Below are positions 1,072 through 63,986 of a stretch of 64,000 nucleotides of DNA, piece by piece (the stretch's first letter is position 1; every line of letters begins with the position of its first letter). The position numbers and the translations under genes are program-made. The notes beneath the pieces are model-generated. The model was not told where the DNA came from. It did not search any database and was given only the letters and a program-made list of their open reading frames with translations. Source of the stretch: a virus (taxonomy: Duplodnaviria; Heunggongvirae; Uroviricota; Caudoviricetes); the IMG/VR virus record IMGVR_UViG_3300029517_000186; one strand, written 5' to 3'.

Positions 1072-1746
1072 TCAATATGATGTAATTAAAGAACCTTCAT
1101 CTATATCAAAAGTTACTGTTTTGCCTTTCTTTAACTGGCAAAATAAATCAGCTCTGTCATCTCCAAATCCAAATGGAAGATAATCATACCTTTCTATTTC
1201 ATTCCTGATAAGAAAATCTTTATTAAGCTTAAATGATTCATTCCATATTCTTTTTACTGTTTTTGTTATCATTTTCATATCATCAACTGAAAAGATTACG
1301 CTGCCATCAAAATACTTCATCTGTTTTGTAAGGTAGTCTGTATAGCTTTCGGGAGTATCTTCAATTAATCCTTCATTTATAGCTTCTCTTACTTCATCTG
1401 CTGTTAATGGCAGGTATGTGTATCGTTTTACGGCTGTTATATGTGTTATTCCGGTTACTATTGCTATTACAATCATGCCTATAATAGCAAAAGCAATTAA
1501 CAGCACGAAAATAATGCCAAATAGCCATATAGCACCTATGATTGTTTTTATCAAAAATATTGAAAACTTACTGCTTACATCTTCTATATACGGATTTATT
1601 TCTTTTCCGTTATTTATGTATGGCAATATCAGATTGCCTATAATGGCAGATAAGGCAATATATATCATAATTGCCCCGACTAATATTACTCCTGTACACT
1701 CATTAAAAAATTCTTTCCAAAATGATTTCTTTTTCTTAAATTTCAT
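1072..1746 (-). CDS. hypothetical membrane protein
   Basis: 224 aa; AAGGAG RBS; two or three TM helices (ILVGAIMIYIALSAIIGNLIL, IIGAIWLFGIIFVLLIAFAIIGMIVIAIV). Confidence 0.6.
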   Translation of the reverse strand: MKFKKKKSFWKEFFNECTGVILVGAIMIYIALSAIIGNLILPYINNGKEINPYIEDVSSKFSIFLIKTIIGAIWLFGIIFVLLIAFAIIGMIVIAIVTGITHITAVKRYTYLPLTADEVREAINEGLIEDTPESYTDYLTKQMKYFDGSVIFSVDDMKMITKTVKRIWNESFKLNKDFLIRNEIERYDYLPFGFGDDRADLFCQLKKGKTVTFDIDEGSLITSY

Positions 1747-5504: not shown

Positions 5505-6188
5505 ATGTCCAGAAAATCTAAGTATTCTATAGAACAGCGAGTACAAGCATGTGAAGACTATCACAATGGAACTCGTAGTTTAGAAGAAATATGTATAGCT
5601 CTCGGAACTACCAGAAAGAAAACTATCCGTGAGTGGTTAAAAAAATATGAGAAGTACGGAGTATCTGCTTTTCAGGAAAAGTCATATAACAAAAGTTATA
5701 CAAAAGAATTTAAAATTCAAGTAGTGGAAGAATATATAAGTGGTTATGGTTCACTAGAGGAACTGATTGTAAAATATGATATTTCTTCTACAACCCAACT
5801 ACGAAAATGGATTTCAGTGTATAATGCCAATAGAGAACTTAGGGACTATTGTCCAAAACCGGAGGTCTATATGGCAGAAGCAAGAAGAAAAACAAGCATT
5901 GAAGAACGCAAAGAAATCGTAAAGTATTGTATCGGACATAATCGTAATTATAAAGAAACTGCAAGTGCTTATGATGTCTCATACAATCAAGTCTATTCTT
6001 GGGTAAAAAAGTATGATGCACTAGGTGAAGAAGGATTAACAGATAAGCGTGGATGTCATAAAACGGATGAAGAGGTAGACGAATTGGAACGTCTTCGTCG
6101 GGAAAATGTACGTTTAAAGAAGCAACTCAAAGAAAAGGATATGTTAACGGAACTGTTAAAAAAAGTACAGGAATTCGAAAGGATGTGA
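5505..6188 (+). CDS. IS3-family transposase OrfA (HTH plus leucine zipper)
   Basis: 227 aa; two HTH regions; C-terminal LERLRRENVRLKKQLKEK zipper; AAGGGG RBS. Confidence 0.85.
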   Translation: MSRKSKYSIEQRVQACEDYHNGTRSLEEICIALGTTRKKTIREWLKKYEKYGVSAFQEKSYNKSYTKEFKIQVVEEYISGYGSLEELIVKYDISSTTQLRKWISVYNANRELRDYCPKPEVYMAEARRKTSIEERKEIVKYCIGHNRNYKETASAYDVSYNQVYSWVKKYDALGEEGLTDKRGCHKTDEEVDELERLRRENVRLKKQLKEKDMLTELLKKVQEFERM

Positions 6189-7150
6189 GGCTCGGAAAAC
6201 TTCGCTATAATTCGGAATTTATAGCAATAAAGTTTTTCTATGAAACAAAGAACTGGAGTATTAATTGGATGTGTAAACAGCTCGAAATATCAAGAGCTGC
6301 CTATTATAAGTGGTTGAATCGTGAGATACCTGAACAGGAAGCAGAAAATATGAAGTTGGCAGAACTTATAAAGGAGTACGATGAGCGCTTTAATCACATC
6401 CTGGGTTATAGAAGAATGACCTCTTGGATTAATCACTTTAACCATACTGATTATAAACCGAAGAGAGTACATCGAATTATGAAGAAGTTGGGTATTCATT
6501 CAGTCATTAGACGAAAGCAGAAAAAATATACTTCTTCGACACCGGAAGCAGTAGCTGAAAATAGATTAGGCAGAGACTTTTATGCAACTGCACCAAATGA
6601 GAAGTGGACAACTGATGTAACAGAGTTTAAGATTCCAGGTGAGAAAAAGAAACTTTATTTAAGTGCCATTCTTGACTTATATGATAGATACCCTGTTGCG
6701 TATGTTATCAGCACGAGAAATAATAATGAGCTCGTATTTAAAACCTTTGATAAAGCTATTGCCGCAAATCCTGAAGCTAAACCATTATTTCATAGTGATA
6801 GAGGTTTTCAGTATACAAGTAAGGTATTTCAAATGAAACTTAAGGAACATAAGATAGAACAATCTATGTCCAGAGTTGGACATTGTATAGATAATGGACC
6901 TACTGAAGGATTCTGGGGTATCATAAAATCAGAAATGTATCAGATGTACGATATAACAGATGAATCTTCATTAAGATTTGCAATAAAAGATTATATTAGA
7001 TTCTACAGTGAAGAACGACCACAAGACAGGTATCATTGCAAAACGCCACTAGATGTAAGAGCTGAAGCATTATCTACAGCAACACCACAACAGTATCTTA
7101 TTCCTAAAAATAAACGAATTGAAAAATATAAAGAGAAATGGTGTGCATAG
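6185..7150 (+). CDS. IS3-family transposase OrfB (DDE integrase core), made as an OrfAB fusion by -1 frameshift
   Basis: rve-type motifs WTTDVTEF, HSDRGFQYTS, CIDNGPTEGFWGIIKSE; overlaps orfA in the -1 frame. Confidence 0.85.
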   Translation: MRLGKLRYNSEFIAIKFFYETKNWSINWMCKQLEISRAAYYKWLNREIPEQEAENMKLAELIKEYDERFNHILGYRRMTSWINHFNHTDYKPKRVHRIMKKLGIHSVIRRKQKKYTSSTPEAVAENRLGRDFYATAPNEKWTTDVTEFKIPGEKKKLYLSAILDLYDRYPVAYVISTRNNNELVFKTFDKAIAANPEAKPLFHSDRGFQYTSKVFQMKLKEHKIEQSMSRVGHCIDNGPTEGFWGIIKSEMYQMYDITDESSLRFAIKDYIRFYSEERPQDRYHCKTPLDVRAEALSTATPQQYLIPKNKRIEKYKEKWCA

Positions 7151-8587: not shown

Positions 8588-9616
8588 TTACATAAAAGAT
8601 TGTATATTATATCCTTTTCGTCTGAAACGAACTCTAATCTTTTTTATTGCTTTTGATTCAATCTGTCTGATTCGTTCTCTGGAAACATTCCATTCAGTAC
8701 CTATATCTTTTAAAGTTTTAACCTTTGAACCATATCCCATTCTACTCTTAATTACATATAATTCTCTAGGAGTGAGACAATCTTCAACTTCTTTCCAAAG
8801 CAGTTCATTCATTTCTTTTTGAATAATCGTATCTTCAACTTTAGGTTCAGGCACTTCTATATAATCAGCCAAACACGAATCGTCATGGCCTTCATCACTT
8901 TGAATAGGTGCATCTAACGAAACCAATTCATTAAAGCTCTGAATATGTACAAGCATTTCTTTAGTTAAAAGAGGATATCTTTGTTTTACTACATCATATA
9001 ATTCATCAATTGTAGGTTTTCTTTGAAGTTTATTAGTTAAATCCACAAATGTAGTCTTAACAAAAGAATCCTGTTCTCTTACATGTACAGGGAATCTAAC
9101 TAATAAATCATAATTGGCTAATTCTCTATATATACTCTGTCTAATCCAATGAGTTGCATAAGTTGAAAACGCATATCCTAATTTATAATCAAACATTTGT
9201 ATAGCTTTGTATAATCCGAAAATACCGGCCTGACATAAATCATCCATTTCAAAACTTTGCGTTTTAGCTGTAACAGCTTTAGCAATACTGATAACTAAAC
9301 GCATATTAGATAAAATCAATTTTTCTGTTATTTCCTTTTTCTTTTTAGGATGTTTTTTTATCTCTTCAAATAATTTAAGAGTTTCATCTTTGGATAAAAC
9401 CGGATAATCAGCAAATGATTTAATATAATAAGTTATATTATTTTCTAATAATAGTTTCTGTTTTTCATTTGAAATCTCTTTATCATTTAAAATATCGGTA
9501 TAATTATCCTCTGATAAAATATTTATGTTTTCTATTGGTTTATTTGTATCAAATAATTCATCAACATATTCATCTTTATTGTTTTTTTTATTTAATAATA
9601 AATTCTTATCTGCCAT
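8588..9616 (-). CDS. RNA polymerase sigma factor, sigma-70 family
   Basis: Region 2 motifs LVISIAK and YATHWIRQSI; region 4 HTH TLKDIGTEWNVSRERIRQIESKAIKKIR; AGAGGAG RBS. Confidence 0.9.
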   Translation of the reverse strand: MADKNLLLNKKNNKDEYVDELFDTNKPIENINILSEDNYTDILNDKEISNEKQKLLLENNITYYIKSFADYPVLSKDETLKLFEEIKKHPKKKKEITEKLILSNMRLVISIAKAVTAKTQSFEMDDLCQAGIFGLYKAIQMFDYKLGYAFSTYATHWIRQSIYRELANYDLLVRFPVHVREQDSFVKTTFVDLTNKLQRKPTIDELYDVVKQRYPLLTKEMLVHIQSFNELVSLDAPIQSDEGHDDSCLADYIEVPEPKVEDTIIQKEMNELLWKEVEDCLTPRELYVIKSRMGYGSKVKTLKDIGTEWNVSRERIRQIESKAIKKIRVRFRRKGYNIQSFM

Positions 9617-11051: not shown

Positions 11052-12737
11052 TTAGCATTTGCGTACTATTGAAGGGGCTGACATATCAGGGTTAATGAAT
11101 TTCTTACATAAATGTTCAATTCCAGTTGTTGAATCAAGCCAATATAAATAATCTCCATCAACGTCCACCAGATATTCATTAATAGAATCAAGAACATCGT
11201 TTACTTCGGAAACAGTACAAATAAATCTATATGAAGACTTATTTTTCTTTAAAGGTTTAACAGATTTAACAATAATCTGATATACAGTTTCGTCATCTGA
11301 AGATCTAAAATCATCTACTTGAATTTTCCCTGATAAACATAATTTAGCATCATTAACAAGTAAGTCTCTAATATTTGCATAATCCTTAGAAAAACATACA
11401 CCATTAATAGAACCTGTTTTATCTTCTACCTCAAAAGTTACCCATTCGTATCCATTTCTGTCCTTTCTTATAACAAGATTTTTAATTATACCAGATACAT
11501 CATTAACTTCTGTTGAAATATCAGAAATGGGATCTGTATAAATATTATACTCATCAATTGGATGCCCTGTAATATAAACACCTAACACTTCTTTTTCATC
11601 ATTTAGAATCTGACCTAAATCATCTTCTACATAATCAATATCTATATTTTCAAGATCATCTTCTAAGCTTTCTATAACTGTCTTAGCTGAATTGATACGT
11701 TTAATTATGGAATCCTTAGTTGGCATCTTTTTTGAAGTAACTTGAAAGGAAATATTTTCTTCTGAAATTTTTTCCTTAAACTCATCAAGATCAATATAAT
11801 CTTCCACAAATTCAATAACTTTACTTGCGTTTTCAATAAACTTACTCTTCTCTCTGATTTTCTTGATTGTATCCTGAATTTCTTTCATACAAATCATATC
11901 TAATGATATCATTGTTCTTGTATAACCAAGGCAATCAAAAGCACCTGCTTTAATTAAGGAACTTAATGCTTCTGCATTAATATTTGTTCGTTTGATAAAA
12001 TCCTTAATATCAGAATATTCTCCATTAGCATTTCTATCTTCAACAATTTTAGCTGCTTCTGCTCCAACATTCTTAATATTACTCAGACCATACAAAATAT
12101 TTCCATCTACAACATCACAATGTAAATTTGAAGCATTAATGTCCGGAGGCAATACCTTTACTCCAAAATCAAGAGCATCACTAATATCATCAGCGACTTC
12201 ATCAATCTTATCAGTATGATTTATTACATTTGTAAGATAATAAGCCGGATAATAATACTTAAGAAAAGCAGTCCAATATGATGTAACAGCATAAGCAGAG
12301 GCATGTGACTTATTAAAAGCATACTTAGCAAAATCAACCATCGCATCCCAGATTTTATGAGCAATTTCTTCTGGTATTCCATTTGCAATACAACCTGGTA
12401 CTAATGCTTCATTTTCTTTTTTAGTATCAGCATTGCCATATACAAAAGTGTGTCTTTCAGCATCAATTTCATCCTGATGTTTTTTTGACATAGCTCTACG
12501 GACTAAATCAGAACGCCCCCATGTATATCCTGCTAAATCACGAACAATCTGCATTACCTGTTCCTGATAAACTATCTGTCCATAAGTAGTTGACAAAATT
12601 GGCTCTAATTGAGGACATAAATATTTAATCTTAGATGCATCCTTTTTACCTTCTATGAAATCAGGTATAAACTTTTCAGGACCAGGACGATATAAAGCAT
12701 TCATTGCTATTAAATCTTCAATACCTGTTTTATTCAT
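11052..12737 (-). CDS. dnaE: DNA polymerase III alpha subunit (DnaE), C-terminal part of a split gene
   Basis: IEDLIAMNALYRPGP, YGQIVYQEQVMQIV, FAKYAFNKSHASAYAVTSYWTAFLKYYYP; begins exactly where the upstream ORF 18413..20962 ends in the DnaE alignment. Confidence 0.9.
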   Translation of the reverse strand: MNKTGIEDLIAMNALYRPGPEKFIPDFIEGKKDASKIKYLCPQLEPILSTTYGQIVYQEQVMQIVRDLAGYTWGRSDLVRRAMSKKHQDEIDAERHTFVYGNADTKKENEALVPGCIANGIPEEIAHKIWDAMVDFAKYAFNKSHASAYAVTSYWTAFLKYYYPAYYLTNVINHTDKIDEVADDISDALDFGVKVLPPDINASNLHCDVVDGNILYGLSNIKNVGAEAAKIVEDRNANGEYSDIKDFIKRTNINAEALSSLIKAGAFDCLGYTRTMISLDMICMKEIQDTIKKIREKSKFIENASKVIEFVEDYIDLDEFKEKISEENISFQVTSKKMPTKDSIIKRINSAKTVIESLEDDLENIDIDYVEDDLGQILNDEKEVLGVYITGHPIDEYNIYTDPISDISTEVNDVSGIIKNLVIRKDRNGYEWVTFEVEDKTGSINGVCFSKDYANIRDLLVNDAKLCLSGKIQVDDFRSSDDETVYQIIVKSVKPLKKNKSSYRFICTVSEVNDVLDSINEYLVDVDGDYLYWLDSTTGIEHLCKKFINPDMSAPSIVRKC

Positions 12738-18308: not shown

Positions 18309-18346
18309 AATATTGTTCTCCTTTATTTATTATAATTTAAAAGAAA

Positions 18347-18359
18347 TATGACAGAAAAA
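18347..18359 (-). promoter_or_regulatory. conserved promoter motif
   Basis: TATGACAGAAAAA, then terminator hairpin AACGCA ... TGCGTT (18357..18386). Confidence 0.55.
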
Positions 18360-18412: not shown

Positions 18413-20962
18413 CTATGAACATAACTTCTTAAGGTTATTCCTCATACCGGCTGACTCAAACTGGAAAACATTCTTAGTTCTTCCTTTTGCATATACTTCT
18501 TTGTATACCTTATCAGCTTTAGGACCCTCTAATGGAATATTCATTACATCAATTACTTCTCCTGTATCTCTCTGAATCATTCTGAGTGTGTCAGTAATAA
18601 TTGTAAGAGTTTTTAATCCAAGAAAATCCATTTTTAATAATCCATTAGCTTCGCACTGAATCATGTCCATTTCTGTAGTTTTAATTCCCTTTTTTCCATC
18701 TCTAATAGGAATATAATCAGTAACATCATTACTATCATAAATAATAACACCTGCGGCATGTTGTCCGTATGTCGTAAGCATACCTTCACAATGAGCTGCA
18801 ATATTAAGAATAGAAATAGCATCTGGATTACTATTATATTCATCCTTTAAGAAATCTAACAAAGAAACGCTGTCCTGAATATTAATGCCTAATTCATCAA
18901 CCTTATTAGTATCTTTCATGCCAACAATATCTTCAAAATTAGTTGCTTTAGCAGGCACTTTCTTACGAATCTGATCTCCTAAAGATAAGAATTTCTTTTC
19001 ATCATCATAAGCTTTCTTTCCATAATATCTTGCAGCATCTCTGATAGCACCTTTAGCCTGCTGCCTTGATTCTGTAATAATTCCAACAACAGCTTCACTA
19101 CCATATTTAGCTCTTACATACTCAATTGTCTTTTCTCTTACTCCAAGAGCAAGATCGCTATCGATATCAGGCATACTTACTCTTTCTGGATTTAAGAATC
19201 GTTCAAAAATCAGATTATACTTAAATGGATCAATTCCGGTAATACCAAGTAAATATGTAACCAATGAACCGGCACCTGAACCTCTTCCAATGCCTATTCC
19301 AATTCCGGTATTATAATTGTGAGCCTTAACATACTCTTTTGCACCTTCAATTGTTAAAGGTACTTCTGATAGTTTATCCATAGGTACTAATCCACAAATT
19401 CTTCCATATTCCAGGAAGTCCTTTACAATTAAATGATAATCGGCAAAGCCCATCTGAATGATAATATTAAGTTCGTATTCCATTCGTTTCTGATGTTCTT
19501 CATCCCATCCTTTTCCGTTAGGATATCTCCAATTAATTCCCTTAATTGCTTCAGATCTTAATAATTCGTTTGAGTCCTTGTTCTTATCAAATACTGGATA
19601 ATGATTAGATTTTTCTGGAATATAAGCACATCTTTTTCCAATTACATTTAAGTTATTAAGTGCTTCTGCAACCTGATCATCTGTTAATATAGCTGATAAG
19701 GCCTGAGCAAGTTCGTAAGGTGTTTTTACATATAACTCTTTATCTGATTCCGACTCACTTATCTTAATAAATCTTAAAAATTTTGCTACATTACGCATAT
19801 CAATACTTCTATCAGAATTATCTGCCATATGTGCATCATTAGCAGCAACTAATGGGATATTATGCTTCCTTGCTAACTGAGCTAACACAGGATATGTCCT
19901 GCTTTCCATTTCAAGACCATGATTCTGAACTTCAATGTAATAATTACCTGCTCCAAAAATTTCCTGATAAAAAAGCATTGTCTTTTCTGCTTCAGACATT
20001 AATTCTATTGGGCTTTTCTTTAATGATTCATAATGCTGTATCTTATTTTCATGATTAATATATTCCTCTACCTTAAGACTTATATCCTTTAACTCGGCTT
20101 TCTTAGCATTAACTAATTTTCTGACATTAGGAATTTTATCTTTAGCTTCCAGAATTTTATTATTTATCTCCTCATATTCATTAATCAGTTTAATAAGCTC
20201 TGGATCATCATCATTTAAACACTTCCTTGCATCTCTTAATTTTCTTGAGATCTGTGTTCTTTCTGATTTAAGTTCCTTGGAATCACGAATATTAATTAAT
20301 TCATCTAAATCTGCCGATACCTTTTCAAATTCATCTTTAGCTGAAAGATATTCTTTATCATCAGGACTTATACAATCACGTATAACTAGCTCGTCTTTTT
20401 CAGTAGTATGCTGCTGTGCTTTTCTTTCTCTGTTAATCATTTTATCCAAAACATCATCTGATAATAATTGCAGAGCTGGTGCACCCGAAACGCAAGCTGA
20501 AGTTGCTATTATATCACCGTTAAAGTTATATTTCTTTAAATCTGATATTGTAATAACAGGCTTTCCCATTCTTTTTTCAGAAGCCTTAGAATTTAACTTA
20601 TCAATAATATGCTTGCCTCTTTCTGAAGTGGCTAACATAATCATATGGCCAATCTGCTCATTTATCTTAAATGGTGGCACTTCAATATAAGCCTCTACGC
20701 CATAAATGATATTAAAAGGATGTTCCTCAGTACTTATTTTCTTAGCGTAATCAATACATGTTTGCATTGCTGAAAATGATGCATGGTCCGTAACAGCAAA
20801 TTTAGTATATCCTGCATTAAATGCAGCATCTAAATAACTTTTAGGTTCATCTACGGCATCAAACAAAGAGCCTCCTGGATGGTTATGTTCACACACTGTA
20901 ACTCCTGACTCAATAACCTTTTTTGTTAATTCTCCAATTTTTACATGTTCAAACATTGACAT
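18413..20962 (-). CDS. dnaE: DNA polymerase III alpha subunit (DnaE), N-terminal part (PHP plus palm) of a split gene
   Basis: PHP VCEHNHPGG ... FAVTDHASF; palm GRGSGAGSLVTYLLGITGIDPFKYNLIFERFLNPERVSMPDIDSD; ends ...NVFQFESAGMRNNLKKLCS at the junction where the C-part resumes. Confidence 0.9.
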   Translation of the reverse strand: MSMFEHVKIGELTKKVIESGVTVCEHNHPGGSLFDAVDEPKSYLDAAFNAGYTKFAVTDHASFSAMQTCIDYAKKISTEEHPFNIIYGVEAYIEVPPFKINEQIGHMIMLATSERGKHIIDKLNSKASEKRMGKPVITISDLKKYNFNGDIIATSACVSGAPALQLLSDDVLDKMINRERKAQQHTTEKDELVIRDCISPDDKEYLSAKDEFEKVSADLDELINIRDSKELKSERTQISRKLRDARKCLNDDDPELIKLINEYEEINNKILEAKDKIPNVRKLVNAKKAELKDISLKVEEYINHENKIQHYESLKKSPIELMSEAEKTMLFYQEIFGAGNYYIEVQNHGLEMESRTYPVLAQLARKHNIPLVAANDAHMADNSDRSIDMRNVAKFLRFIKISESESDKELYVKTPYELAQALSAILTDDQVAEALNNLNVIGKRCAYIPEKSNHYPVFDKNKDSNELLRSEAIKGINWRYPNGKGWDEEHQKRMEYELNIIIQMGFADYHLIVKDFLEYGRICGLVPMDKLSEVPLTIEGAKEYVKAHNYNTGIGIGIGRGSGAGSLVTYLLGITGIDPFKYNLIFERFLNPERVSMPDIDSDLALGVREKTIEYVRAKYGSEAVVGIITESRQQAKGAIRDAARYYGKKAYDDEKKFLSLGDQIRKKVPAKATNFEDIVGMKDTNKVDELGINIQDSVSLLDFLKDEYNSNPDAISILNIAAHCEGMLTTYGQHAAGVIIYDSNDVTDYIPIRDGKKGIKTTEMDMIQCEANGLLKMDFLGLKTLTIITDTLRMIQRDTGEVIDVMNIPLEGPKADKVYKEVYAKGRTKNVFQFESAGMRNNLKKLCS

Positions 20963-38465: not shown

Positions 38466-38513
38466 TTGTAAATAATACTCAAAATACTCCATTAATTTGA
38501 AAGCATATATAAT

Positions 38514-38526
38514 ATGACAGAAATAA
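38514..38526 (-). promoter_or_regulatory. conserved promoter motif heading the long leader
   Basis: TATGACAGAAATA immediately after the recA stop. Confidence 0.5.
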
Positions 38527-49894: not shown

Positions 49895-50263
49895 CTAAAT
49901 ATTCATTTCTAAATATTTTTCTTGTTCATCATTTAATGCATCATATATTTCCGTAGAAGGAATTACTTCACAATTCATTAAACTGTTATGATATGATTTT
50001 TCAGAAACATCATGACGTAAATGATCAATAGGAACTCTTAGATTCCACATTTTTATTGCTTCATCTTTAGTCTTACCCATTCCACCGCTGGCTCCACAGC
50101 CTCCTTTTGCGTAATCGCAAGTAATCTTAAAGCCATTAGTTTTAATAGGGATAATACTCATTGAGTCCCACTTTCTACAAAATGGACATCTTTTGAGTCC
50201 TACCTTTATTGTCTTATTTGTCTTATTTATTGCATTTGTTGACACTGTTGCTGTTGTTACCAT
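49895..50263 (-). CDS. Lar-family restriction-alleviation-like zinc-ribbon protein
   Basis: CPFC ... C..GGCG zinc ribbon and C-terminal KDEAIKMWNLR resemble the Lar family signature. Confidence 0.5.
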   Translation of the reverse strand: MVTTATVSTNAINKTNKTIKVGLKRCPFCRKWDSMSIIPIKTNGFKITCDYAKGGCGASGGMGKTKDEAIKMWNLRVPIDHLRHDVSEKSYHNSLMNCEVIPSTEIYDALNDEQEKYLEMNI

Positions 50264-53006: not shown

Positions 53007-55340
53007 TTATCCAAACTGTTGTCTTTTTATTAAAATATTATTATATATTTCATCCCAGTATTTATTTATAGCATCAATTTCTTGTTGATCAGTTAATGCA
53101 TTCTTATCGATAATAACATCATCAAGACTTTTTATAACAGTATTAGCAGTTTTATAATCTGAAATATTAGTATTCTCAGCTTCTTTTAAAGCATCATATG
53201 CTTTTTTGTAACAAAAACTGGCATTTTCATAATTAGGAAAATCGATTTGAAAAAAATCTTTTTTACCAGAATTATAATTACATTTTTTCCCTTCCCAGTC
53301 AATATAATGCTCATAAATAGTTTCAGGTTTCTCAAATTCCTTGTTATCTAAATTCTGGTGCAAATATTCATTAAACTGCTTCCATATTTCTCCACATATT
53401 GCTGAACCATTATCAAAATTTTTAGGAATATCATATCCGGTCCATACACATGTTGTATAATATGGTGTATAAGCACATAACCAGGAATCCTTATTATCAT
53501 TTGTAGTTCCTGTTTTTCCTGCACAAATCTGATTATCTATTTGATAATTTTTGACGTATCCTTCTGTAAAATTTGAAATTAAACAATCTGTCATCATATA
53601 AGCGGTGCCTTTTTTATATACTTGAATATCTTCTTTATTTTGATATATTTCTTCATTTTGACGCAACATATGTTTGATGCATGTATTATTATTGTATTTA
53701 CCATTATTAGCTAATGCATTGTATGCTTTAGTCATGTTTTCTACTGTTACACCATTTGTAAAACCACCTATGGCAATTGCAGCATTATTATTATCTTCAT
53801 ATGAAATATTATAAAAGTGCATTTTATTTAAATACTCTAAACAATTATTTATTCCAACATTCATTAATGTTTTAACAGCCGTTGTATTGACTGATTGTAA
53901 TAAAGCTGTTCTTACTGAAATATTGCCTCTGTAATATCCATCATGATTTTTAGGCTGATATTTACCCTCAAGTGGAGAATCCAAAATCATAGATGATGGA
54001 TGATAGTCTAAAATATCAAAAGCCGGAGCATAATCTAATATTGGTTTAATGGAAGAGCCTGGTTGTCTAGGAGATTGATATGCTCTATTTATATATTCAT
54101 TATCTTCTTGTCCACCTATAATTGCTCTAACATATCCAGTTTCATTATCAATACACATGGATGATGTTTGAAGAAGATGCCGCCCATCCTCGGATAAGCT
54201 GTTATCATATTGTGATAAAACATTTTTTGAAATTTGTAATAGCTCAAGCTGCTTATCTTTATCTATTGAAGTATATATCCTGTATCCTCCAGTTAATATT
54301 TCTTCTTTGTACTTAGAGTATATTTTATTATATTGATTAATATAATCTTGCTCATCTTCTGAAGAATCAAAAAGGTATTTAAAATTAAATCCATTTATTT
54401 CCATAAGATATTCAATAGAACATTTAAGTGTATATGAAAATTCATAAGATGTTGGTAAATCAGATGTTTCTTTATATAAAATTAAATCAAGAGGATCTTC
54501 TAATGCTTCATTGTATTGTTTTTCTGTAATTATTTTCTGATTATACATTGTATTAAGGACTTGATTTCTTTTACATATTGCTAATTCATAATTTGTTTCA
54601 GGATTATATTTTGTAGGGGCATTTGAAATACCTATTAACATTGCGGCCTGAGATATTGTTACATCAGATGCATCACATCCAAAATAATATTTACAAGCTG
54701 CCTGAATTCCGTAACAATTGCTGCCATAGAAATTAGAGTTTAAATACATTTCAAGTATTTGTTCTTTAGAATATGATTTTTCCATTTCAAGTGATGCTAT
54801 CATTTCAGTAAGTTTTCTATCTATTGTTTTGTCTGAATTTTTTATAACAATATTTTTTACAACCTGTTGTGTAATTGTACTGCCGCCCTGAGTTATTTTT
54901 CCTTTATTCTTTATATAAGCCAAAGAAGCTCGTAACAATGCTTTAGCATCAATACCTTTATGAATATAGAAATTCTTATCTTCCACAGCAATATATCCTT
55001 GTATTATATAATCACTGACATCGCTGATATTAACATATTCATAAGAGCCGTTAATATTAGCTGCCATTAATGTGCCATCATCATAATAAAAATATGTATT
55101 CAGTTCTTTATTAAATTCATCTTGATTCATATTTTGTAATGACTCATATGCATTTTCCTGTGCCAATTTGAATTTACTGTAAAATTTAATATAAAATACT
55201 GATAATGATATTAAAGATAATAATATGACTATCATAATAATCAATATAAAAATTTTAAATATGGTTAAAAGATGATTTTTCCTTTTTTTTAGTGGAATAT
55301 TTTTATCATCATTATAAAGTGGTTGCTTTTTAGAACTCAT
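53007..55340 (-). CDS. class A penicillin-binding protein (GT51 transglycosylase plus transpeptidase)
   Basis: N-terminal TM; GT51 motifs [12 protein letters not shown] and GGSTITQQ; transpeptidase SxxK (GSSIKP) and KTG (GKTGTTND); AAAGGAGAA RBS. Confidence 0.85.
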
Positions 55341-55618: not shown

Positions 55619-56752
55619 TTACATAATTTTATTTTTGCCTGTTCTTTTAGCTTTATACAAATTTTTATCTGCTGCATCAAATAAATCGTGAACGGTATTA
55701 TTTTTCTTATATTCTGTTATTCCTCCAGAGAAAGTAAATTGCTGCGGAATATTCTCATATTTAATATTGTTGAATTTAATTCTGATATCGTTAATTATAT
55801 TATACGCCTCAGTATATTCATAATCTGCAAATAATATTCCGAATTCTTCGCCTCCATATCTGGCGACAAAAATATTTGATTGGTTAATATTTTGAAGTTC
55901 CTTAGCTAAATTAATTAAAACAGTATTTCCAAATTCATGTCCATATGTATCGTTAACTGATTTAAAATCATCTATATCTATTATACAAAAATGAAGTTTT
56001 TTCTTATATGATATCCATTTCTTTGTTGTATTAAAAAGAGACCTATAATTATCTAATCGAGTTAATCCATCTTGTGAAATTTCTTTTAGTAATTGTGCAT
56101 TTCTATTTTCAGATAAAACCAGTTTAAGTTCTTTTTCTTTCTCATATTTAATAACAAGTCTTGAATAAATATATGCAAATATTGTTATGATACATGATAA
56201 AAACATATATATTAAATAATTTGATGGTAACTTATTTAATTCAGAGATTGATGATAATGAAATTGTAATAATTTCAAATTGACTTATCAAAAATAATTGC
56301 CAATTAACCTTGTTACTACCATATACAATACACATAAAAATTGGGCAGGCTATTAATGTATATAATACCGGATAATTATAATGAATGATAATTGAAACCA
56401 CTATAATTAAAGTTAAAATATACAAAGGCATGGCTTCATATATTTCTGGTATAATATTATCTTGATATTTTCTTATAATTTGTCTACCGGTAAACCATAT
56501 TATTAAATTAGATGTAGTAGGTATAAATACATTCAATATAATATAAGATAATATATTTATTGTTTGTTTTTCTATTATTATGTGTATTGGTATAAATAAT
56601 AATTCAAAAATAAATATTGTGATTATTATAAGAAGGTTAATAGCCATTATTTTATTTTGAAATTTATTATACAAATATGCGTATAAACTGGTTTGTTTTT
56701 CTGTATGATTTATTGTATTATCTTGTATTTTAATTTTTTCTATTGTTTTCAT
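55619..56752 (-). CDS. GGDEF-domain diguanylate cyclase with an N-terminal polytopic membrane domain
   Basis: Active-site RYGGEEF; about seven TM helices at the N-terminus. Confidence 0.85.
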   Translation of the reverse strand: MKTIEKIKIQDNTINHTEKQTSLYAYLYNKFQNKIMAINLLIIITIFIFELLFIPIHIIIEKQTINILSYIILNVFIPTTSNLIIWFTGRQIIRKYQDNIIPEIYEAMPLYILTLIIVVSIIIHYNYPVLYTLIACPIFMCIVYGSNKVNWQLFLISQFEIITISLSSISELNKLPSNYLIYMFLSCIITIFAYIYSRLVIKYEKEKELKLVLSENRNAQLLKEISQDGLTRLDNYRSLFNTTKKWISYKKKLHFCIIDIDDFKSVNDTYGHEFGNTVLINLAKELQNINQSNIFVARYGGEEFGILFADYEYTEAYNIINDIRIKFNNIKYENIPQQFTFSGGITEYKKNNTVHDLFDAADKNLYKAKRTGKNKIM

Positions 56753-56894
56753 AATAATATTTATTAATCACTGAATTCCTTATCTGAAGATAAGGGAAGA
56801 AGTAATTCTCCTTTCTGCCATATTGCATCTTTTTGTTTCTAATATATGAGTATTTTACAAAGTTATTATCATTTTTATTAATTAAAATCTAACA

Positions 56895-58109
56895 TTACTC
56901 TGTTGCATCATAAAATTCTTTCTCTGGATACAATTCGTTCAAATTTTCTGCTAAATCAATTTCTTCAAGTAAAGCATTATAGTTCATTTTGATTTTCTCA
57001 GATTTAATTAAACTTAACATAGCATCTGCAATTACCGGATCAAATTGAGTACTTTTACCTTTTTCAAGCTCATTGATTACAATTATTGAATCTAAATGTT
57101 TCCTATATACTCTGTCACTTGTCATTGCATCAAAGGCATCTGCCACAGAAATAATCCTTGCAATATAAGGTATTTGTTCTCCCTTTAAGCCATCTGGATA
57201 TCCTTTTCCATCATATCTTTCATGATGATATTTTGCTCCCAAATCAATGTCCTTAAGCATTGACATATCTTTTAAGATATTTCCACCTATTACTGTGTGG
57301 TTCTTCATTACTTGGTACTCTTCATTTGTTAATTTCCCTGGTTTATTTAATATGCTATCCGGGATTCCTAGTTTTCCTATATCATGCAATAGTGCTATTG
57401 AATGAATATCTTCAATTTCATTTTTATTCATTCCTAATTTATATGCTAATAAGGCTGTATAATCCGCCACTCTGGTTGAGTGGCCTTTTGTGTAATTATC
57501 TCTGGCATCAATAATATTTGCTATAGTTGTAATTGTTTGGAGAGACATTTTGTTAATTTGTTCTATTTGATTTATTATTGTTTGTGTATTTTGTAAATTT
57601 AGGTCTGTATTTCTTTTATAAAACTTTGAAACAATATATGCTGCAGCAAAGCATAAAATAATTATTGCAAGTTGTATCTCCATGTCTTTGCCACCTGATT
57701 TATCAATTTTATTATATGTCTTAATAAATATTGCTGTAATATTCAACACTGTCGAAAATAAACCAGTTACTATAATTAAAGTTGGATCATAATATAAAAT
57801 TAAAAGCAGGATAATTGGGAATATATAAGTAAAACATAAAACAGTATTTCCTGTAAATAAGGTAAATGTATACATTATTAAAAACGAGAATGTTACAAAA
57901 TATTTTAAAAATAGCCAGTTTTTATTATAAATAAAAACCAACCACCCTGTTAAATTCGGGATACTGATTAATATAGCAAATATTGCAAAATATGGTGGTG
58001 ATATAGCATGTTTTAACATTTCACCAAAATAAATGCCTAATAGTGTTATTGTTATTACTGACCAACCACATAAAAGTGATGTATTTAATCTTTCTTGTTC
58101 TCTATCCAT
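56895..58109 (-). CDS. HD-GYP-domain c-di-GMP phosphodiesterase with an N-terminal membrane domain
   Basis: HD motif LLHDIGK; HHERYDGKGYPDGL; AAGGAGGA RBS. Confidence 0.85.
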   Translation of the reverse strand: MDREQERLNTSLLCGWSVITITLLGIYFGEMLKHAISPPYFAIFAILISIPNLTGWLVFIYNKNWLFLKYFVTFSFLIMYTFTLFTGNTVLCFTYIFPIILLLILYYDPTLIIVTGLFSTVLNITAIFIKTYNKIDKSGGKDMEIQLAIIILCFAAAYIVSKFYKRNTDLNLQNTQTIINQIEQINKMSLQTITTIANIIDARDNYTKGHSTRVADYTALLAYKLGMNKNEIEDIHSIALLHDIGKLGIPDSILNKPGKLTNEEYQVMKNHTVIGGNILKDMSMLKDIDLGAKYHHERYDGKGYPDGLKGEQIPYIARIISVADAFDAMTSDRVYRKHLDSIIVINELEKGKSTQFDPVIADAMLSLIKSEKIKMNYNALLEEIDLAENLNELYPEKEFYDATE

Positions 58110-58149
58110 AGGTCCTCCTTATAGTCAAAAAAAGTTATATTAATATATA

Positions 58150-58162
58150 TATGACAGATAAT
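58150..58162 (-). promoter_or_regulatory. conserved promoter motif for the HD-GYP/GGDEF operon
   Basis: TATGACAGATAAT. Confidence 0.5.
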
Positions 58163-58268
58163 ATTAAAAAAAGAGTTCAACGTGACTAAGTAAGATCATG
58201 CTTACCGTTACCGCTGAACCCTTTTTATAAAAAATATAATTAGCTCCTTTATTTTTAGCTAATAATAA

Positions 58269-58281
58269 TATGACAGAATTA
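58269..58281 (-). promoter_or_regulatory. promoter motif heading a roughly 90-nt unit with no ORF
   Basis: TATGACAGAATTA; downstream AAAGGAGC then a 10-bp stem (with G-U pairs), 29-nt structured loop and U-run at about 58170..58225. Confidence 0.4.
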
Positions 58282-58287
58282 AAATAA

Positions 58288-58320
58288 ATAAAGCGTAGAA
58301 TAATTAATTCTACGCTTTAT
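58288..58320. terminator. intrinsic terminator after the PARP operon
   Basis: AGCGTAGA ... TCTACGCT hairpin. Confidence 0.6.
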
Positions 58321-58327
58321 GCAATCA

Positions 58328-58471
58328 TTATTTATTAATTTTTTTCTGATGTAAATTATTTATAAAAGTAATTGCCTCAGGAGGCAATGGAGAAAATCTA
58401 TATACTTTTTTCATTTCTTCTTCGCAGCATATACCTGCTCTTTTTAATTCATATATATTTTTCTTTTTCAT
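58328..58471 (-). CDS. small Cys-containing protein (47 aa) downstream of PARP
   Basis: AAGGAGGAAA RBS and ATG at 58471; MKKKNIYELKRAGICCEEEMKK...; below the ORF-track cut-off. Confidence 0.45.
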   Translation of the reverse strand: MKKKNIYELKRAGICCEEEMKKVYRFSPLPPEAITFINNLHQKKINK

Positions 58472-58483
58472 AAAATTTCCTCC

Positions 58484-59770
58484 TTACTGAGCTGCTGTAA
58501 ATTCAACAAAATATTCTATAGTACTTTGCTGATCCTGATATACAATAATTTCATCATTACATAAACTATGGCCCGCATGAGCAAAAGTACAATGAGCGCC
58601 AGGACATCTCTGTTGTAAAACATTATAAGTTAAATCACTTTCAGCAGATGTTACATCATATGTTTTACCAGTAGCCACTTTGAAAATGCCTAAATATCCA
58701 ATTGCTTCACTACCATGAGTCCAATAAGAACCGGAGCTTGAAGTATATCCCATCGATTTTTTTGCCTTATTAGCAAAATATGTACCTAATCCAAACATCT
58801 TTCCATTAGTTACAACTCCAACTGGATTTATTGTTAAACCATTAGTTATAATGGACCAGAAGTTTTCTGATCTTGAACCATGAAATAAATGAGATATTCC
58901 ATTATTTTCATCACTTAAATTTTCTTTAGCACAATATTCATTGAAAGCCTTTTCGGTCTTTTTATTAATGATTCTCCAAGCATTTTTATATTGCTTTGCA
59001 TTTTCTCCCATAAGCTTCTTGATTTTAGTCTCTTCTTCGTCAGATACAGGTCTCCATTCAAGTCCATAGGCCTGAAGAACTGTTGGCATAGTGTCATATT
59101 TAGCTAAATTACTATTAGATCTTACCTGAGAATACACAATATCAAACAGTTCCTGCTCTTTGTCAATGATATCAACAAATTCAATCTTTCTTTTAGCCAA
59201 ATGTTTAGATAAATTATCCATTCTTCTAGGAATTGCAGCATATAATACTTTTAATTTATTATTAAACTCTGCAATTGACATAGAATCATGGTTCTTAGCT
59301 AATTCAGTCAAAATCGAATTACCATATTCAAGCATCTCATCTGAAATATCTTCAACTGAAGTTGAATAATTATCTGAAATAACCTTATTAGCGTATGAAA
59401 GCAGTTTTGTTATAATAGAATCAACAGAGAAAATTCCAGTCTGTGCATATGTGCCGCCATTAAAACTTAAACCTTTTTTTGTAATCTTTTTTTTCTCCAT
59501 TTTTTGAGTCTTTGTAAGCAACCAACCTCTATTTACCTTAGACAAATAAAAAGAATCCCAATTAGTCATAGGAAGTGAATATGTCCTTGGCCTGTTCCTT
59601 CCTATCCTGATTCCAATTCTACCTTCAGTAACATCAAAAACATTCTTATTATTGGCATTAACCTGCATAATAATCTGTTGATTATTACCTTTACCTGTAG
59701 CTGTTTCTGCAACATAATTAAGTTCCAAATATTCATGATTTGGTATTGTATTTATATCTGCCTGTTTCAT
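58484..59770 (-). CDS. poly(ADP-ribose) polymerase-like protein (WGR plus PARP catalytic domain)
   Basis: WGR-like EGRIGIRIGR ... WDSFYLSKVNRGW; catalytic H-G-S (LFHGSRSENFWSIITNGL), GLGTYFA, and E in CNDEIIVY. Confidence 0.8.
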   Translation of the reverse strand: MKQADINTIPNHEYLELNYVAETATGKGNNQQIIMQVNANNKNVFDVTEGRIGIRIGRNRPRTYSLPMTNWDSFYLSKVNRGWLLTKTQKMEKKKITKKGLSFNGGTYAQTGIFSVDSIITKLLSYANKVISDNYSTSVEDISDEMLEYGNSILTELAKNHDSMSIAEFNNKLKVLYAAIPRRMDNLSKHLAKRKIEFVDIIDKEQELFDIVYSQVRSNSNLAKYDTMPTVLQAYGLEWRPVSDEEETKIKKLMGENAKQYKNAWRIINKKTEKAFNEYCAKENLSDENNGISHLFHGSRSENFWSIITNGLTINPVGVVTNGKMFGLGTYFANKAKKSMGYTSSSGSYWTHGSEAIGYLGIFKVATGKTYDVTSAESDLTYNVLQQRCPGAHCTFAHAGHSLCNDEIIVYQDQQSTIEYFVEFTAAQ

Positions 59771-59786
59771 AAATCCTCCTTATATA

Positions 59787-59987
59787 TTACGCAATTTTAT
59801 CTTTAAATTTTTCGAAAGCTTCTTTTGTAAATTGTGTATACATCCCAGAATCATTTCTTACTGATACGAAATCGCCAAATGCAATACATTCATATGTATG
59901 TCCTTTTGTCCAGCATCCATAGAATGATTCATTAGTATCAGATAAAGTTTTATTTGCCTGCACATTAAAAACAATATGTTCTATCAT
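59787..59987 (-). CDS. hypothetical protein
   Basis: 66 aa; AAGGAGG RBS; promoter variant TATGTCAGAAAAA at 60025. Confidence 0.55.
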   Translation of the reverse strand: MIEHIVFNVQANKTLSDTNESFYGCWTKGHTYECIAFGDFVSVRNDSGMYTQFTKEAFEKFKDKIA

Positions 59988-60024
59988 TTTGAATACGCCT
60001 CCTTTAATTAATTGATGTAATATA

Positions 60025-60037
60025 TATGTCAGAAAAA
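60025..60037 (-). promoter_or_regulatory. conserved promoter motif (variant CTGACATAT on the coding strand)
   Basis: Plus strand TATGTCAGAAAAA. Confidence 0.45.
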
Positions 60038-61340: not shown

Positions 61341-61423
61341 AAATTACTACCTTGTTGCTATATTAGCAACTTCCTTTCTAAAATAATATTGAAGTTTTTA
61401 TTACACAAAACATCTAAAAATAA

Positions 61424-61460
61424 TATGACAGACATAAAAAATAAAATCTGTCATATATAT
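61424..61460. promoter_or_regulatory. inverted pair of promoter motifs (TATGACAGAC ... CTGTCATATATAT): divergent promoters
   Basis: Minus copy serves 60624..61340; plus copy is followed by an AAAGGAGGAAA RBS and ATG-TAG start-stop at 61491..61496, then the terminator at 61566..61600. Confidence 0.45.
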
Positions 61461-61600
61461 AAATAGCGTTTTATTAAAGGAGGAAATGTTATGTAGTTTT
61501 TTTTGATTAAAAATTAATTTAGTATTGTAGATTCAAAGACGGGTGAATTTGCAATAATTAAACATAAAAAGGTTGAGCTTTATTGCCCAACCTTTTTTTC

Positions 61601-61771
61601 TTAAGCTGTTATACAGCCTGTTATATGAGAATCATTAATATTGATTCTAATATTATTGTCTTCCAATTCCTTCGCTAAATCGAAAATGGAAAGCATTTCC
61701 AGATATTCTAAATATGAAATCATTTGTTTTCTTCCCTTAAGTAACATATCAACATACTCACTTGTACTCAT
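61601..61771 (-). CDS. small hypothetical protein (56 aa)
   Basis: AAAGGAG RBS and ATG at 61771; ends at the bidirectional terminator 61566..61600. Confidence 0.4.
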   Translation of the reverse strand: MSTSEYVDMLLKGRKQMISYLEYLEMLSIFDLAKELEDNNIRININDSHITGCITA

Positions 61772-62707: not shown

Positions 62708-62725
62708 AAGTGTATATATACACTT
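62708..62725. promoter_or_regulatory. perfect 18-bp palindrome AAGTGTATATATACACTT between divergent promoters; oriT candidate for the MobV relaxase
   Basis: Lies 55 bp upstream of the mob start; resembles MobV-type oriT inverted repeats with a GTGT core. Confidence 0.45.
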
Positions 62726-62741
62726 TATTATTTTTTCTGTC

Positions 62742-62757
62742 ATATCTTAATTAATAT
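62742..62757 (+). promoter_or_regulatory. conserved promoter motif in plus orientation (TTTTTTCTGTCATATC) for mob
   Basis: 34 nt upstream of the GAGG RBS and ATG of 62781. Confidence 0.5.
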
Positions 62758-62780: not shown

Positions 62781-63986
62781 ATGTCAGATAAATCTTATAC
62801 AATTTGCAAAATCATGAAATTAAATTCACTAAATGCTAATGGCAGATATAGTGTTAGATCTGCAGGCGAACATAATTTAAGGGAGTATGTACCATATAAT
62901 TGTGATTCTGAAAAACAAAATTTAAATAAAGATATTGTTGAACTTCCTAAAATGCTTAATGGAAGCCATTACTCCTATCAGACTGTTGTAAAAAATGCAA
63001 TTAAAGAAATTCAAGATAATGGTACAATGGGAAAAGTTCGTCCTGATGCAGTTTATGCATTTGAAATTTGTCTAGGTTTTAATCCGGCAGATGGAAAGGA
63101 CTGGAAAGATATTATTTCAGAAAAAGACCTAGATAAATGGTGTCAGGAAAATAAAAAATGGCTTGAAGAGCGTTTTGGTAAAAACAATTTAAAGCATTTA
63201 GTATTACATATGGATGAATCAACTCCTCATTTACATGCTTTAATTGTTCCTATTAATAATAAAGGTAGGTTAAGTGCTAAATCATTTATTAATGGCCCGA
63301 CTGATTTATCAAAATTGCAGACTGAATATGCAAAGAAAGTAGGTTCACAATTTGGGTTATCAAGGGGTGTTTCTAAAAAAGAAATAAGAGCTTCTAAAGA
63401 ATTGGAAAATAAATTATATCCTAACTATTCTGATATATCTAAATTCAAAAAAGCCACTCTTGGTAAAATAATGGATGAAAGTGAAATAATAAAGGTTAAC
63501 CCGAAAGAATTGGATAGTAATGGGCATATTTTGCCATCTTACGAAGAAAGAGTGTTAGGTGAATTTCAGAATGTAAAATATCATTATTTAACTTTAGAAA
63601 ATTCATTACGCCAGGAATTAAAAGAAGAACTAAAGCAAGAAATAAAAAAAGTAGATACAGACTTTGAAAGGATTGCACTTGAAAAAGAAGAATTTGAAAA
63701 AGAAAAAAAGAAAAAAGATGCAGAGTTAAAACAAAAAGAAGAGGAACTTATTTCAAAAGAACATGAGTTACAGAAGCTATTAGGTGTATTAGAAAGTACA
63801 AAAAAATCAATCAGGGAAATCAAAAAAGATTATACATATTTTGAAACATTAAATCGTGCCCTTAAGCATGAATCTAATAAGGATATTGCTAAAGATTTAT
63901 ATAAACAGTTAAATAAGTTAGTTGAAGAACAGCATAAAAGAGATAAAGAAAATATTCATGCAATTAAACAATTTGATATAAGATAA
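62781..63986 (+). CDS. mob: MobV/Pre-family plasmid mobilisation relaxase
   Basis: N-terminal HNLRE motif; motif III HMDESTPHLHALIVPI; C-terminal coiled coil. Confidence 0.85.
   Translation: MSDKSYTICKIMKLNSLNANGRYSVRSAGEHNLREYVPYNCDSEKQNLNKDIVELPKMLNGSHYSYQTVVKNAIKEIQDNGTMGKVRPDAVYAFEICLGFNPADGKDWKDIISEKDLDKWCQENKKWLEERFGKNNLKHLVLHMDESTPHLHALIVPINNKGRLSAKSFINGPTDLSKLQTEYAKKVGSQFGLSRGVSKKEIRASKELENKLYPNYSDISKFKKATLGKIMDESEIIKVNPKELDSNGHILPSYEERVLGEFQNVKYHYLTLENSLRQELKEELKQEIKKVDTDFERIALEKEEFEKEKKKKDAELKQKEEELISKEHELQKLLGVLESTKKSIREIKKDYTYFETLNRALKHESNKDIAKDLYKQLNKLVEEQHKRDKENIHAIKQFDIR

Follow-up and report, generated by a model that had tools for sequence, protein, structure and literature searches.

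Proteins of the PARP type have been known from bacteria and phages for more than ten years (PMC4245714, PMC5966428, PMC8120803, PMC7824862). They passed as rare, at 28 sequences in 2014 and 72 in 2018. The Herpetosiphon aurantiacus enzyme (HaPARP) needs DNA for activation and makes poly(ADP-ribose), and the Clostridioides difficile CD160 enzyme (CdPARP) is active in vitro (PMC8120803, PMC5966428). In many bacterial PARPs the helical domain is visible in models only and not to Pfam, and these proteins are thought to have been horizontally acquired (PMC5966428). Here, we analyzed a PARP operon at positions 58,328 to 60,037 of a 64,000-nucleotide (nt) stretch, hereafter the window, from the IMG/VR virus record IMGVR_UViG_3300029517_000186. 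Given the bacterial and phage precedents, the window PARP does not amount to a new kind of system. The literature that we searched appears to contain no description of the size of its family, the split of that family into phage and plasmid forms, a small peptide as its companion or its presence on a prevalent giant element.

The central gene encodes a 428-amino-acid (aa) protein that looks like a catalytically competent, NAD+-dependent ADP-ribosyltransferase (ART) of the PARP1-3 architectural type. Pfam PARP (PF00644) matches it with E=1e-18 and 68 bits (cut-off 26.7) and also matches all 48 aligned homologs; the solved structures closest to it in sequence are those of PARP1, PARP2, the tankyrases and PARP3. 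A preliminary description, made by a model from the letters alone, had noted a full H-Y-E triad context, and alignment bore this out, with H297, Y331 and E407 corresponding to PARP1 H862, Y896 and E988. Together with G298, S299, K338, S339 and Y342, these residues are invariant in the 48-homolog alignment. For H297, G298, Y331, K338, S339, Y342 and E407 the invariance extends to 120 distinct relatives, in which position 299 is occupied by Ser or Thr. The catalytic His and Glu, whose lack of conservation had been named as grounds for refutation, thus hold in both sets. It is this invariance of catalytic and NAD-pocket residues that makes the PARP look competent. Homologs form 1,629 clusters at 90% identity, so that calling PARPs ‘sporadic’ in bacteria and phages, as had been done for this locus, understates their number. 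The one family member with an NCBI name is labeled ‘hypothetical protein’, and the closest plasmid-borne PARPs from isolates are those of a Chondrinema litorale plasmid (30.9%, H1) and a Butyrivibrio proteoclasticus plasmid (30.4%, H3).

That the gene is a decaying, non-functional remnant of a horizontally acquired PARP is hardly credible in light of the residues invariant in 120 relatives, homologs that stay full length across 35-100% identity and a position conserved in eight of eight independent contigs. Such decay could be read from the loss of the canonical WGR aromatic residue, from the one of 17 near-identical copies in which the PARP is split into 100-aa and 346-aa open reading frames (ORFs) (L183:5341-6626; inactivation or assembly error) and from a frameshift in the upstream 66-aa ORF of one copy (L014:151-344; occasional inactivation or assembly error).

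Profile and fold both recover a predicted domain order of WGR-like, helical and ART. The family profile aligns without a break (positions 26 to 372) to the PARP1 fragment comprising WGR, helical domain (HD) and catalytic domain (CAT) at E=1.6e-20, placing its ‘GRvGikvG’ over PARP1 ‘WGRVGTVIG’. Helices occupy aa 114-224 of the AlphaFold model (predicted local distance difference test (pLDDT) 89, predicted template modeling score (pTM) 0.83), and the family profile aligns to the PARP1 HD. Foldseek returned PARP1 and PARP2 WGR-HD-CAT chains as top matches to this model over ~490 alignment columns, with 4dqy_C and 7aeo_A aligned along its whole length. The Pfam profiles for WGR (PF05406) and PARP_reg (PF02877) gave no match at E<=1 in the 428-aa protein or in any of the 48 family members. 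Of the three profiles named in advance as a check, PARP therefore matches and the other two do not, and the WGR-like domain reported earlier stands by family profile and fold, with E-G-R as its motif and no match to Pfam WGR. Separately, the ART domain holds a Cys/His cluster, C389-x3-H393-C394-x3-H398 (58574-58606, aa 389-398), for which Pfam offered zf-CCCH_2 alone with an E-value of 0.23. In the plasmid clade, 47 of 55 proteins retain C394 and 29 of 55 retain H398; in the phage clade, 55 of 65 and 61 of 65 do so (clades as defined below). The cluster could be a small metal site akin to the zinc motif of tankyrase catalytic domains.

The residue before G-R distinguishes this protein from its phage relatives. 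We compared 55 proteins of at least 42% identity, from plasmid-like contexts (the plasmid clade), with 65 proteins of 35-41% identity, from IMG/VR phage contigs (the phage clade). Glu, Gln, Asn or Asp precedes G-R in 48/55 plasmid-clade proteins, whereas Tyr, Trp or Phe does so in 64/65 phage-clade proteins. In the 428-aa protein, the residue is Glu49, giving E-G-R rather than W-G-R and departing from the aromatic residue of the WGR motif in DNA-dependent PARP1-3. Surveyed bacterial PARPs mostly have Tyr at this position, then Trp or Phe (PMC5966428), and in PARP1 the W589A mutation, like its counterparts in PARP2 and PARP3, abolishes DNA-dependent activity altogether (PMC4081085). The DNA-break sensing previously attributed to the WGR-like domain appears doubtful in a protein with Glu where an aromatic residue is needed. 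The domain is basic in both clades (isoelectric point ~9.5, ~9.6 in the 428-aa protein), so nucleic-acid binding is still plausible, though the canonical break-sensing contact is gone.

The clades also differ in their erasers. A TARG1-like macrodomain gene lies on the same strand within 500 bp upstream of the PARP in 59 of 83 phage-clade loci, and anywhere in the fetched flanks in 75 of the 83, versus none of 61 plasmid-clade loci by either count. This phage partner is a 145-aa protein matching human OARD1/TARG1 (E=1e-24) and Pfam Macro (3e-4), and with the PARP it forms a compact predicted writer-eraser pair. One example, among phage loci L092-L170, is the macrodomain at L146:69-506 (+), directly before a PARP at 537-1718. 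A hidden Markov model (HMM) of the partner had no match in the window or the 61 plasmid-clade loci, and no Macro, PARG or ARH occurred among the Pfam matches for window genes and for the 10 kb beyond that end of the window where the relaxase gene described below lies. The search for a PARG or macrodomain partner suggested in the preliminary description thus came back empty for the window, those 10 kb and the 61 loci. ORF 1072..1746 was considered as a macrodomain because of a weak tblastn match to it by a phage macrodomain (E=0.025) and was set aside when neither HMM nor Pfam confirmed it.

Relative to the phage clade, the plasmid lineage has, judging from its sequences, lost both the sensor aromatic residue and the eraser. 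Glu in place of Trp or Tyr and no eraser nearby together suggest that trigger and reversibility probably differ from those of PARP1-3 and of the phage relatives. A specific version of this, in which plasmid-clade PARPs would be rewired sensors that respond to another trigger, for example single-stranded DNA entering in conjugation or the small peptide acting as an HPF1-like or antidote-like cofactor, and leave an irreversible mark on DNA ends or host proteins, is in our estimate quite unlikely. If true, a rewired sensor of this kind would for the first time define what a bacterial PARP does physiologically, and would do so on a giant element highly prevalent in the human microbiome.

As the preliminary description had placed them, three ORFs of 66, 428 and 47 aa lie on the minus strand (Table 1). 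They are separated by gaps of 16 nt (66-aa ORF to PARP) and 12 nt (PARP to peptide), a strong Shine-Dalgarno sequence stands before each of them, and the ribosome-binding site of the 47-aa peptide takes in the PARP stop codon. One promoter-type motif and one terminator bracket the three genes, and therefore a single transcript is the simplest reading; co-transcription, which had been asserted from the start, is plausible on this layout.

Table 1 Coordinates of the PARP operon, the protein domains encoded in it and further window features
Feature	Position	Strand	Basis or remark
66-aa ORF	59787..59987	(-)	First gene of operon; no family match
428-aa PARP-type ADP-ribosyltransferase	58484..59770	(-)	Pfam PF00644, E=1e-18
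WGR-like N-terminal domain, aa 12-92	59495..59737	(-)	Profile and fold; motif E49-G50-R51 at 59618..59626
Helical domain, aa 112-230	59081..59437	(-)	Counterpart of PARP regulatory/autoinhibitory HD
ART catalytic domain, aa 235-425	58496..59068	(-)	Pfam, alignments
Catalytic residues	H297 58880..58882; Y331 58778..58780; E407 58550..58552	(-)	
47-aa Lys-rich peptide gene	58328..58471	(-)	Motifs KKKNI[YF]EL.RAG and PLPPE
Promoter-type motif TCTGACATAT, T-run before	60024..60033	(-)	37 nt 5' of the operon's first ATG
Intrinsic terminator, 14-bp stem and T-tract	58288..58320	(-)	8 nt past last stop
Split PolIII alpha	18413..20962 and 11052..12737		
Sigma70-type protein	8588..9616	(-)	

The sequence upstream of the operon, TCTGACATAT, is a variant of an element-wide motif, TCTGTCATAT. 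TCTGWCATAT, usually following a T-run, has 28 copies in the window versus 0.56 expected. The gene strand holds 25 of them, and for most copies the distance to a downstream ribosome-binding site and ATG is 25-45 nt. The motif stands before the PARP operon, the relaxase and replication genes alike and was found again in the related elements L005 and L048. L005 has the same motif arrangement before its operon, and L017 has a variant motif directly before the PARP gene. The motif looks like the element's own promoter class. Because it is shared across the element and recurs in relatives, we assign the PARP operon to the element's own transcription program and not to a foreign island.

Besides the copy in Table 1, the motif stands at 62736-62745 (+), 38512-38521 (-) and 18346-18355 (-), among others, and a subset of copies has TTATGTAAAA ~17-19 nt further upstream. 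The next copy (58277..58268) follows directly after the operon terminator. It opens a stretch (58159-58277, minus strand) that continues for ~95 nt and closes with a strong terminator hairpin (-29.8 kcal/mol, z=-5.1), beyond which a second motif (58158..58149) precedes an HD-GYP gene. This stretch, without an Rfam match, is a candidate small RNA or leader upstream of cyclic di-GMP (c-di-GMP) genes. Another small-transcript candidate occupies 61447-61605 (+) and consists of a motif (61447..61456), a ribosome-binding site, a 6-codon ORF and a hairpin terminator (61561..61602), its motif standing back-to-back with a minus-strand copy at 61423..61432. A hairpin within the peptide ORF (58388..58371) was rejected as an RNA element or attenuator, as it stems from Pro-Pro-Glu codons and lacks conservation among relatives.

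Comparison among relatives identifies the predicted 47-aa peptide as a real gene and a clade-specific companion of the PARP. Relatives of the peptide follow 4-29 nt after the PARP in L005/L048, L017, L019-21 (= L175) and L177, where the PARP is 77-79% (L005/L048), 76% (L017) and 62% (L019-21 = L175) identical to that of the window; in L016 four small genes intervene and put the peptide 1.3 kb downstream. A separate ribosome-binding site precedes every copy, and PLPPE persists in five further lineages despite many synonymous codon changes. The ORF carries three synonymous and no non-synonymous variants among 11 haplotypes of the window's element, a purifying-type pattern. The reading frame relative to the PARP varies, which argues that the peptide is not a read-through extension of the enzyme. 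The peptide was described earlier as a Cys-containing protein; the gene is genuine and conserved, while the Cys is absent in two lineages (L017 and L019). Below ~60% PARP identity, a different gene lies downstream. An exhaustive search of 1.8 billion representatives (50% clustering) returned only three true peptide relatives and two spurious low-complexity matches. We regard the peptide as the best candidate for a lineage-specific cofactor or regulator of the PARP.

The 66-aa protein, which had been cast as a second accessory protein, is by its distribution not a conserved PARP partner. Its homologs comprise near-identical copies and one 95-aa relative of 47% identity upstream of the PARP of L005, which is 77% identical to the window PARP and marks the only divergent locus with such a relative. 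Population variants in the 66-aa ORF are four synonymous and one non-synonymous, and its AlphaFold2 (AF2) model is unusable (pLDDT 54). For the small proteins, a word-index homolog search found near-identical copies only, and neither one had a meaningful match in Pfam, NCBIfam, PADLOC or PHROGs.

A PARP kept with the same peptide across ~40% PARP sequence divergence could be one half of an addiction or toxin-antidote pair, depleting NAD+ or hitting essential targets until the peptide or the 66-aa protein neutralizes it. The TARG1-like macrodomain directly upstream in the phage clade is reminiscent of DarT-DarG, and a plasmid clade without macrodomain would need another antidote. We nevertheless give this idea little credence. 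Most plasmid-clade PARPs below 60% identity have neither peptide nor macrodomain, the helical domain already provides autoinhibition, the PADLOC toxin-antitoxin and defense models found no match, and the peptide lacks recognizable antitoxin features.

The operon is part of the fixed backbone gene set of a very large, conjugation-equipped, plasmid-like replicon. Contigs carrying these genes measure 235-555 kb and never exceed 1 Mb, and in eight of eight independent contigs of this size range the 66-PARP-47 operon sits at the same place. A Mob_Pre relaxase (62781..63986) is divergently transcribed 2.8 kb from the operon, and a 982-aa coupling protein (T4SS-DNA_transf/TrwB/TraG-D_C, type IV secretion) is encoded 2.4 kb beyond the window end. 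With relaxase and type IV coupling protein both present, the replicon classifies as conjugative or mobilizable, in agreement with the mobile-element setting first proposed. The 106-bp gap upstream of the Mob_Pre gene holds a perfect 18-bp palindrome, AAGTGTATATATACACTT (62708-62725), a candidate hairpin of an origin of transfer (oriT); on the diverging side, 2.7 kb separate it from the start of the PARP operon.

The window has ~28% guanine-plus-cytosine (GC) content and nearly all of its genes on one strand. Its DNA-metabolism genes comprise a split DNA polymerase III (PolIII) alpha subunit, RecA, RecJ, two UvrD-like helicases, a DnaG-type zinc ribbon and a 5'-3' exonuclease. Other genes encode a flotillin, a PBP1A-type protein and a GGDEF/HD-GYP pair, and many ORFs have no family match. 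The pair, an HD-GYP phosphodiesterase (404 aa) and a membrane GGDEF cyclase (377 aa), follows the PARP operon (55619-58109, minus strand) and is itself followed by the PBP1A-type transglycosylase/transpeptidase (53007..55340); c-di-GMP signaling and cell-wall genes are thus borne by a plasmid-like element. An IS3-family transposase pair (5505-7150, plus strand; HTH_28/HTH_Tnp_1, then rve integrase core; local GC 0.33) has inserted on the opposite strand of a gene array that is otherwise one-stranded. Neither Rfam families nor tRNAs turned up in scans of the window, and a DNA search of PLSDB plasmids with the PARP region gave no match. One 95-kb piece of the replicon is filed as viral in IMG/VR (L091). 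Samples carrying the element are gut metagenomes, and human gut samples commonly contain the element; the collection lists the exact HD-GYP protein in 1,125 blocks, indicating very high prevalence.

This setting bears on a further explanation, that the PARP acts early after entry as a host-takeover or counter-defense effector and ADP-ribosylates host nucleases, RNA polymerase or defense proteins, like T4 Alt/ModA/ModB. We consider this possible, if on balance unlikely. The divergent Mob_Pre relaxase and possible oriT palindrome 2.8 kb from the operon, an arrangement repeated in L005, would suit such a role, but the L175 operon lies beside Rep3/ParA with no relaxase on its 17-kb contig. Lar-like restriction-alleviation genes share the gene block of the operon in the window, L017 and L019-21/L175. 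They include a small protein with a weak Pfam match at 49895-50263 (-) and its counterpart at L175:11401-11736, and their occurrence in the peptide-sharing plasmids hints at an establishment or anti-restriction gene set. PARPs of other subclades adjoin DUF3846-YodL, LPD1, topoisomerase IA and a C5 methyltransferase, typical of establishment regions, and modification of host proteins has been suggested for ARTs and PARPs of phages (PMC7824862). A Nature 2024 survey of leading regions, however, does not mention PARP or ADP-ribosylation. The missing eraser fits irreversible action, whereas the kept WGR-like and autoinhibitory helical domains point to ligand-gated rather than constitutive activity.

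Neighborhoods of the relatives point in part to DNA metabolism. A UvrD-like helicase is found near the PARP in 24 of 70 plasmid-clade loci, where other neighbors include DUF3846-YodL and LPD1, topoisomerase IA with a C5 methyltransferase, Rep3/ParA and Lar-like genes. In a subclade of 45-47% identity, a 937-948-aa UvrD-family helicase follows directly after the PARP (+15/16 nt in L059, L061, L062, L064 and L070), and one is also present at L074:9588-12401. Among phage loci, 34 of 90 have an NAD-dependent DNA ligase (LigA) near the PARP; ribonucleotide reductase, ThyX, nucleotide kinases and an RlaP-type nucleotidyltransferase were further neighbors judged by eye, without a family scan.

We tentatively favor a nucleic-acid-triggered ADP-ribosylation that would serve the element's DNA metabolism or establishment, while putting its chances somewhat short of even. 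The helical domain would keep the PARP off until a nucleic-acid (or protein) ligand on the basic WGR-like domain releases the inhibition. ADP-ribose could then be moved from NAD+ onto the PARP itself, DNA-bound proteins or DNA ends, and the modification might serve replication, repair or establishment of the element. We count the association with UvrD, LigA, PolIII, RecA, RecJ and exonuclease genes in favor of this proposal. Several observations weigh against it. The protein lacks the aromatic residue that PARP1/2/3 require for activation by DNA, so DNA breaks may not activate it at all. Neighbors differ between subclades, which weakens guilt by association. No eraser was found near the PARP in the window, in the 10 kb beyond or in the 61 plasmid-clade loci, and this fits signaling less well than an irreversible effector or toxin. 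Finally, poly- and mono-ADP-ribosylation cannot be told apart from sequence, as H-Y-E is necessary but insufficient for polymer formation.

NAD+-consuming enzymes are common effectors of defense systems, and the preliminary description had called the locus defense-like. An abortive-infection module, whose PARP would sense phage DNA or damage and burn NAD+, would draw on the sensor-effector architecture and on carriage by a mobile element, yet we judge it very unlikely. PADLOC-DB v2 gave no match at E<=1 for any of the three proteins, the PARP is a fixed backbone gene rather than part of a variable defense island, and homologs abound in phages themselves. The neighboring genes belong to replication, repair and plasmid establishment and not to defense, and the defense-like label is therefore not upheld.

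Returning to a nucleic-acid-triggered enzyme in the service of its element, known systems offer partial parallels. Human PARP1, PARP2 and PARP3 share with the window PARP the three-domain order, the H-Y-E triad and the nicotinamide-pocket residues, and they give its best PDB sequence and fold matches. They differ in overall sequence (~17-20% identity) and in the motif, which is W-G-R where the window protein has E-G-R; the latter also lacks zinc fingers and BRCT. The bacterial PARPs of H. aurantiacus, C. difficile CD160 and ‘Clostridiales clade 1.2’ (WGR-PARP_cat proteins of Garcia-Saura et al. 2018, PMC5966428) have the same short WGR-helical-ART layout with H-Y-E. HaPARP and CdPARP have a cognate PARG, whereas none was found for the window PARP in the window and 10 kb beyond. 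DarT-DarG and ParT-ParS likewise place an ADP-ribosyltransferase beside a small partner gene, and the phage-clade macrodomain resembles that of DarG. The window ART differs from both in being a full PARP with sensor and autoinhibitory domain, and in having a 47-aa peptide, with no macrodomain, as its partner.

The host replicon looks like a giant ‘Inocle-like’ plasmid, a likeness drawn by description only. Inocles of oral Streptococcus (Kiguchi et al. 2025, PMC12340149) measure 245-368 kb with a GC content of 24-32% and most genes of unknown function, and they carry VirD4/VirB4, DNA polymerase III, RecJ, a sigma factor, a bifunctional transglycosylase and insertion sequence (IS) elements. The window's element differs in its source, gut metagenomes rather than oral Streptococcus; a PARP goes unmentioned in PMC12340149. 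The element agrees with Inocles in size, GC content, coupling protein/VirD4, PolIII, RecJ, sigma factor, transglycosylase/PBP1A and IS elements.

Among related enzymes are the phage PARPs of Cellulophaga phage phi4:1, jumbo phages and ~90 IMG/VR contigs, which share 35-41% identity near full length, the architecture and the catalytic residues with the window protein. They differ in having Y/W/F-G-R and an upstream TARG1/OARD1-like macrodomain, the first mostly missing from the plasmid clade and the second present in none of its 61 loci. A single PARP family, represented in gut plasmids and phages by more than 1,600 clusters, is thus cleanly split in two: the phage form combines Y-G-R with a TARG1-like eraser, whereas the plasmid form has E-G-R, lacks the eraser and is sometimes accompanied by a small peptide. 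This contrast could show what triggers a prokaryotic PARP and what gets modified.

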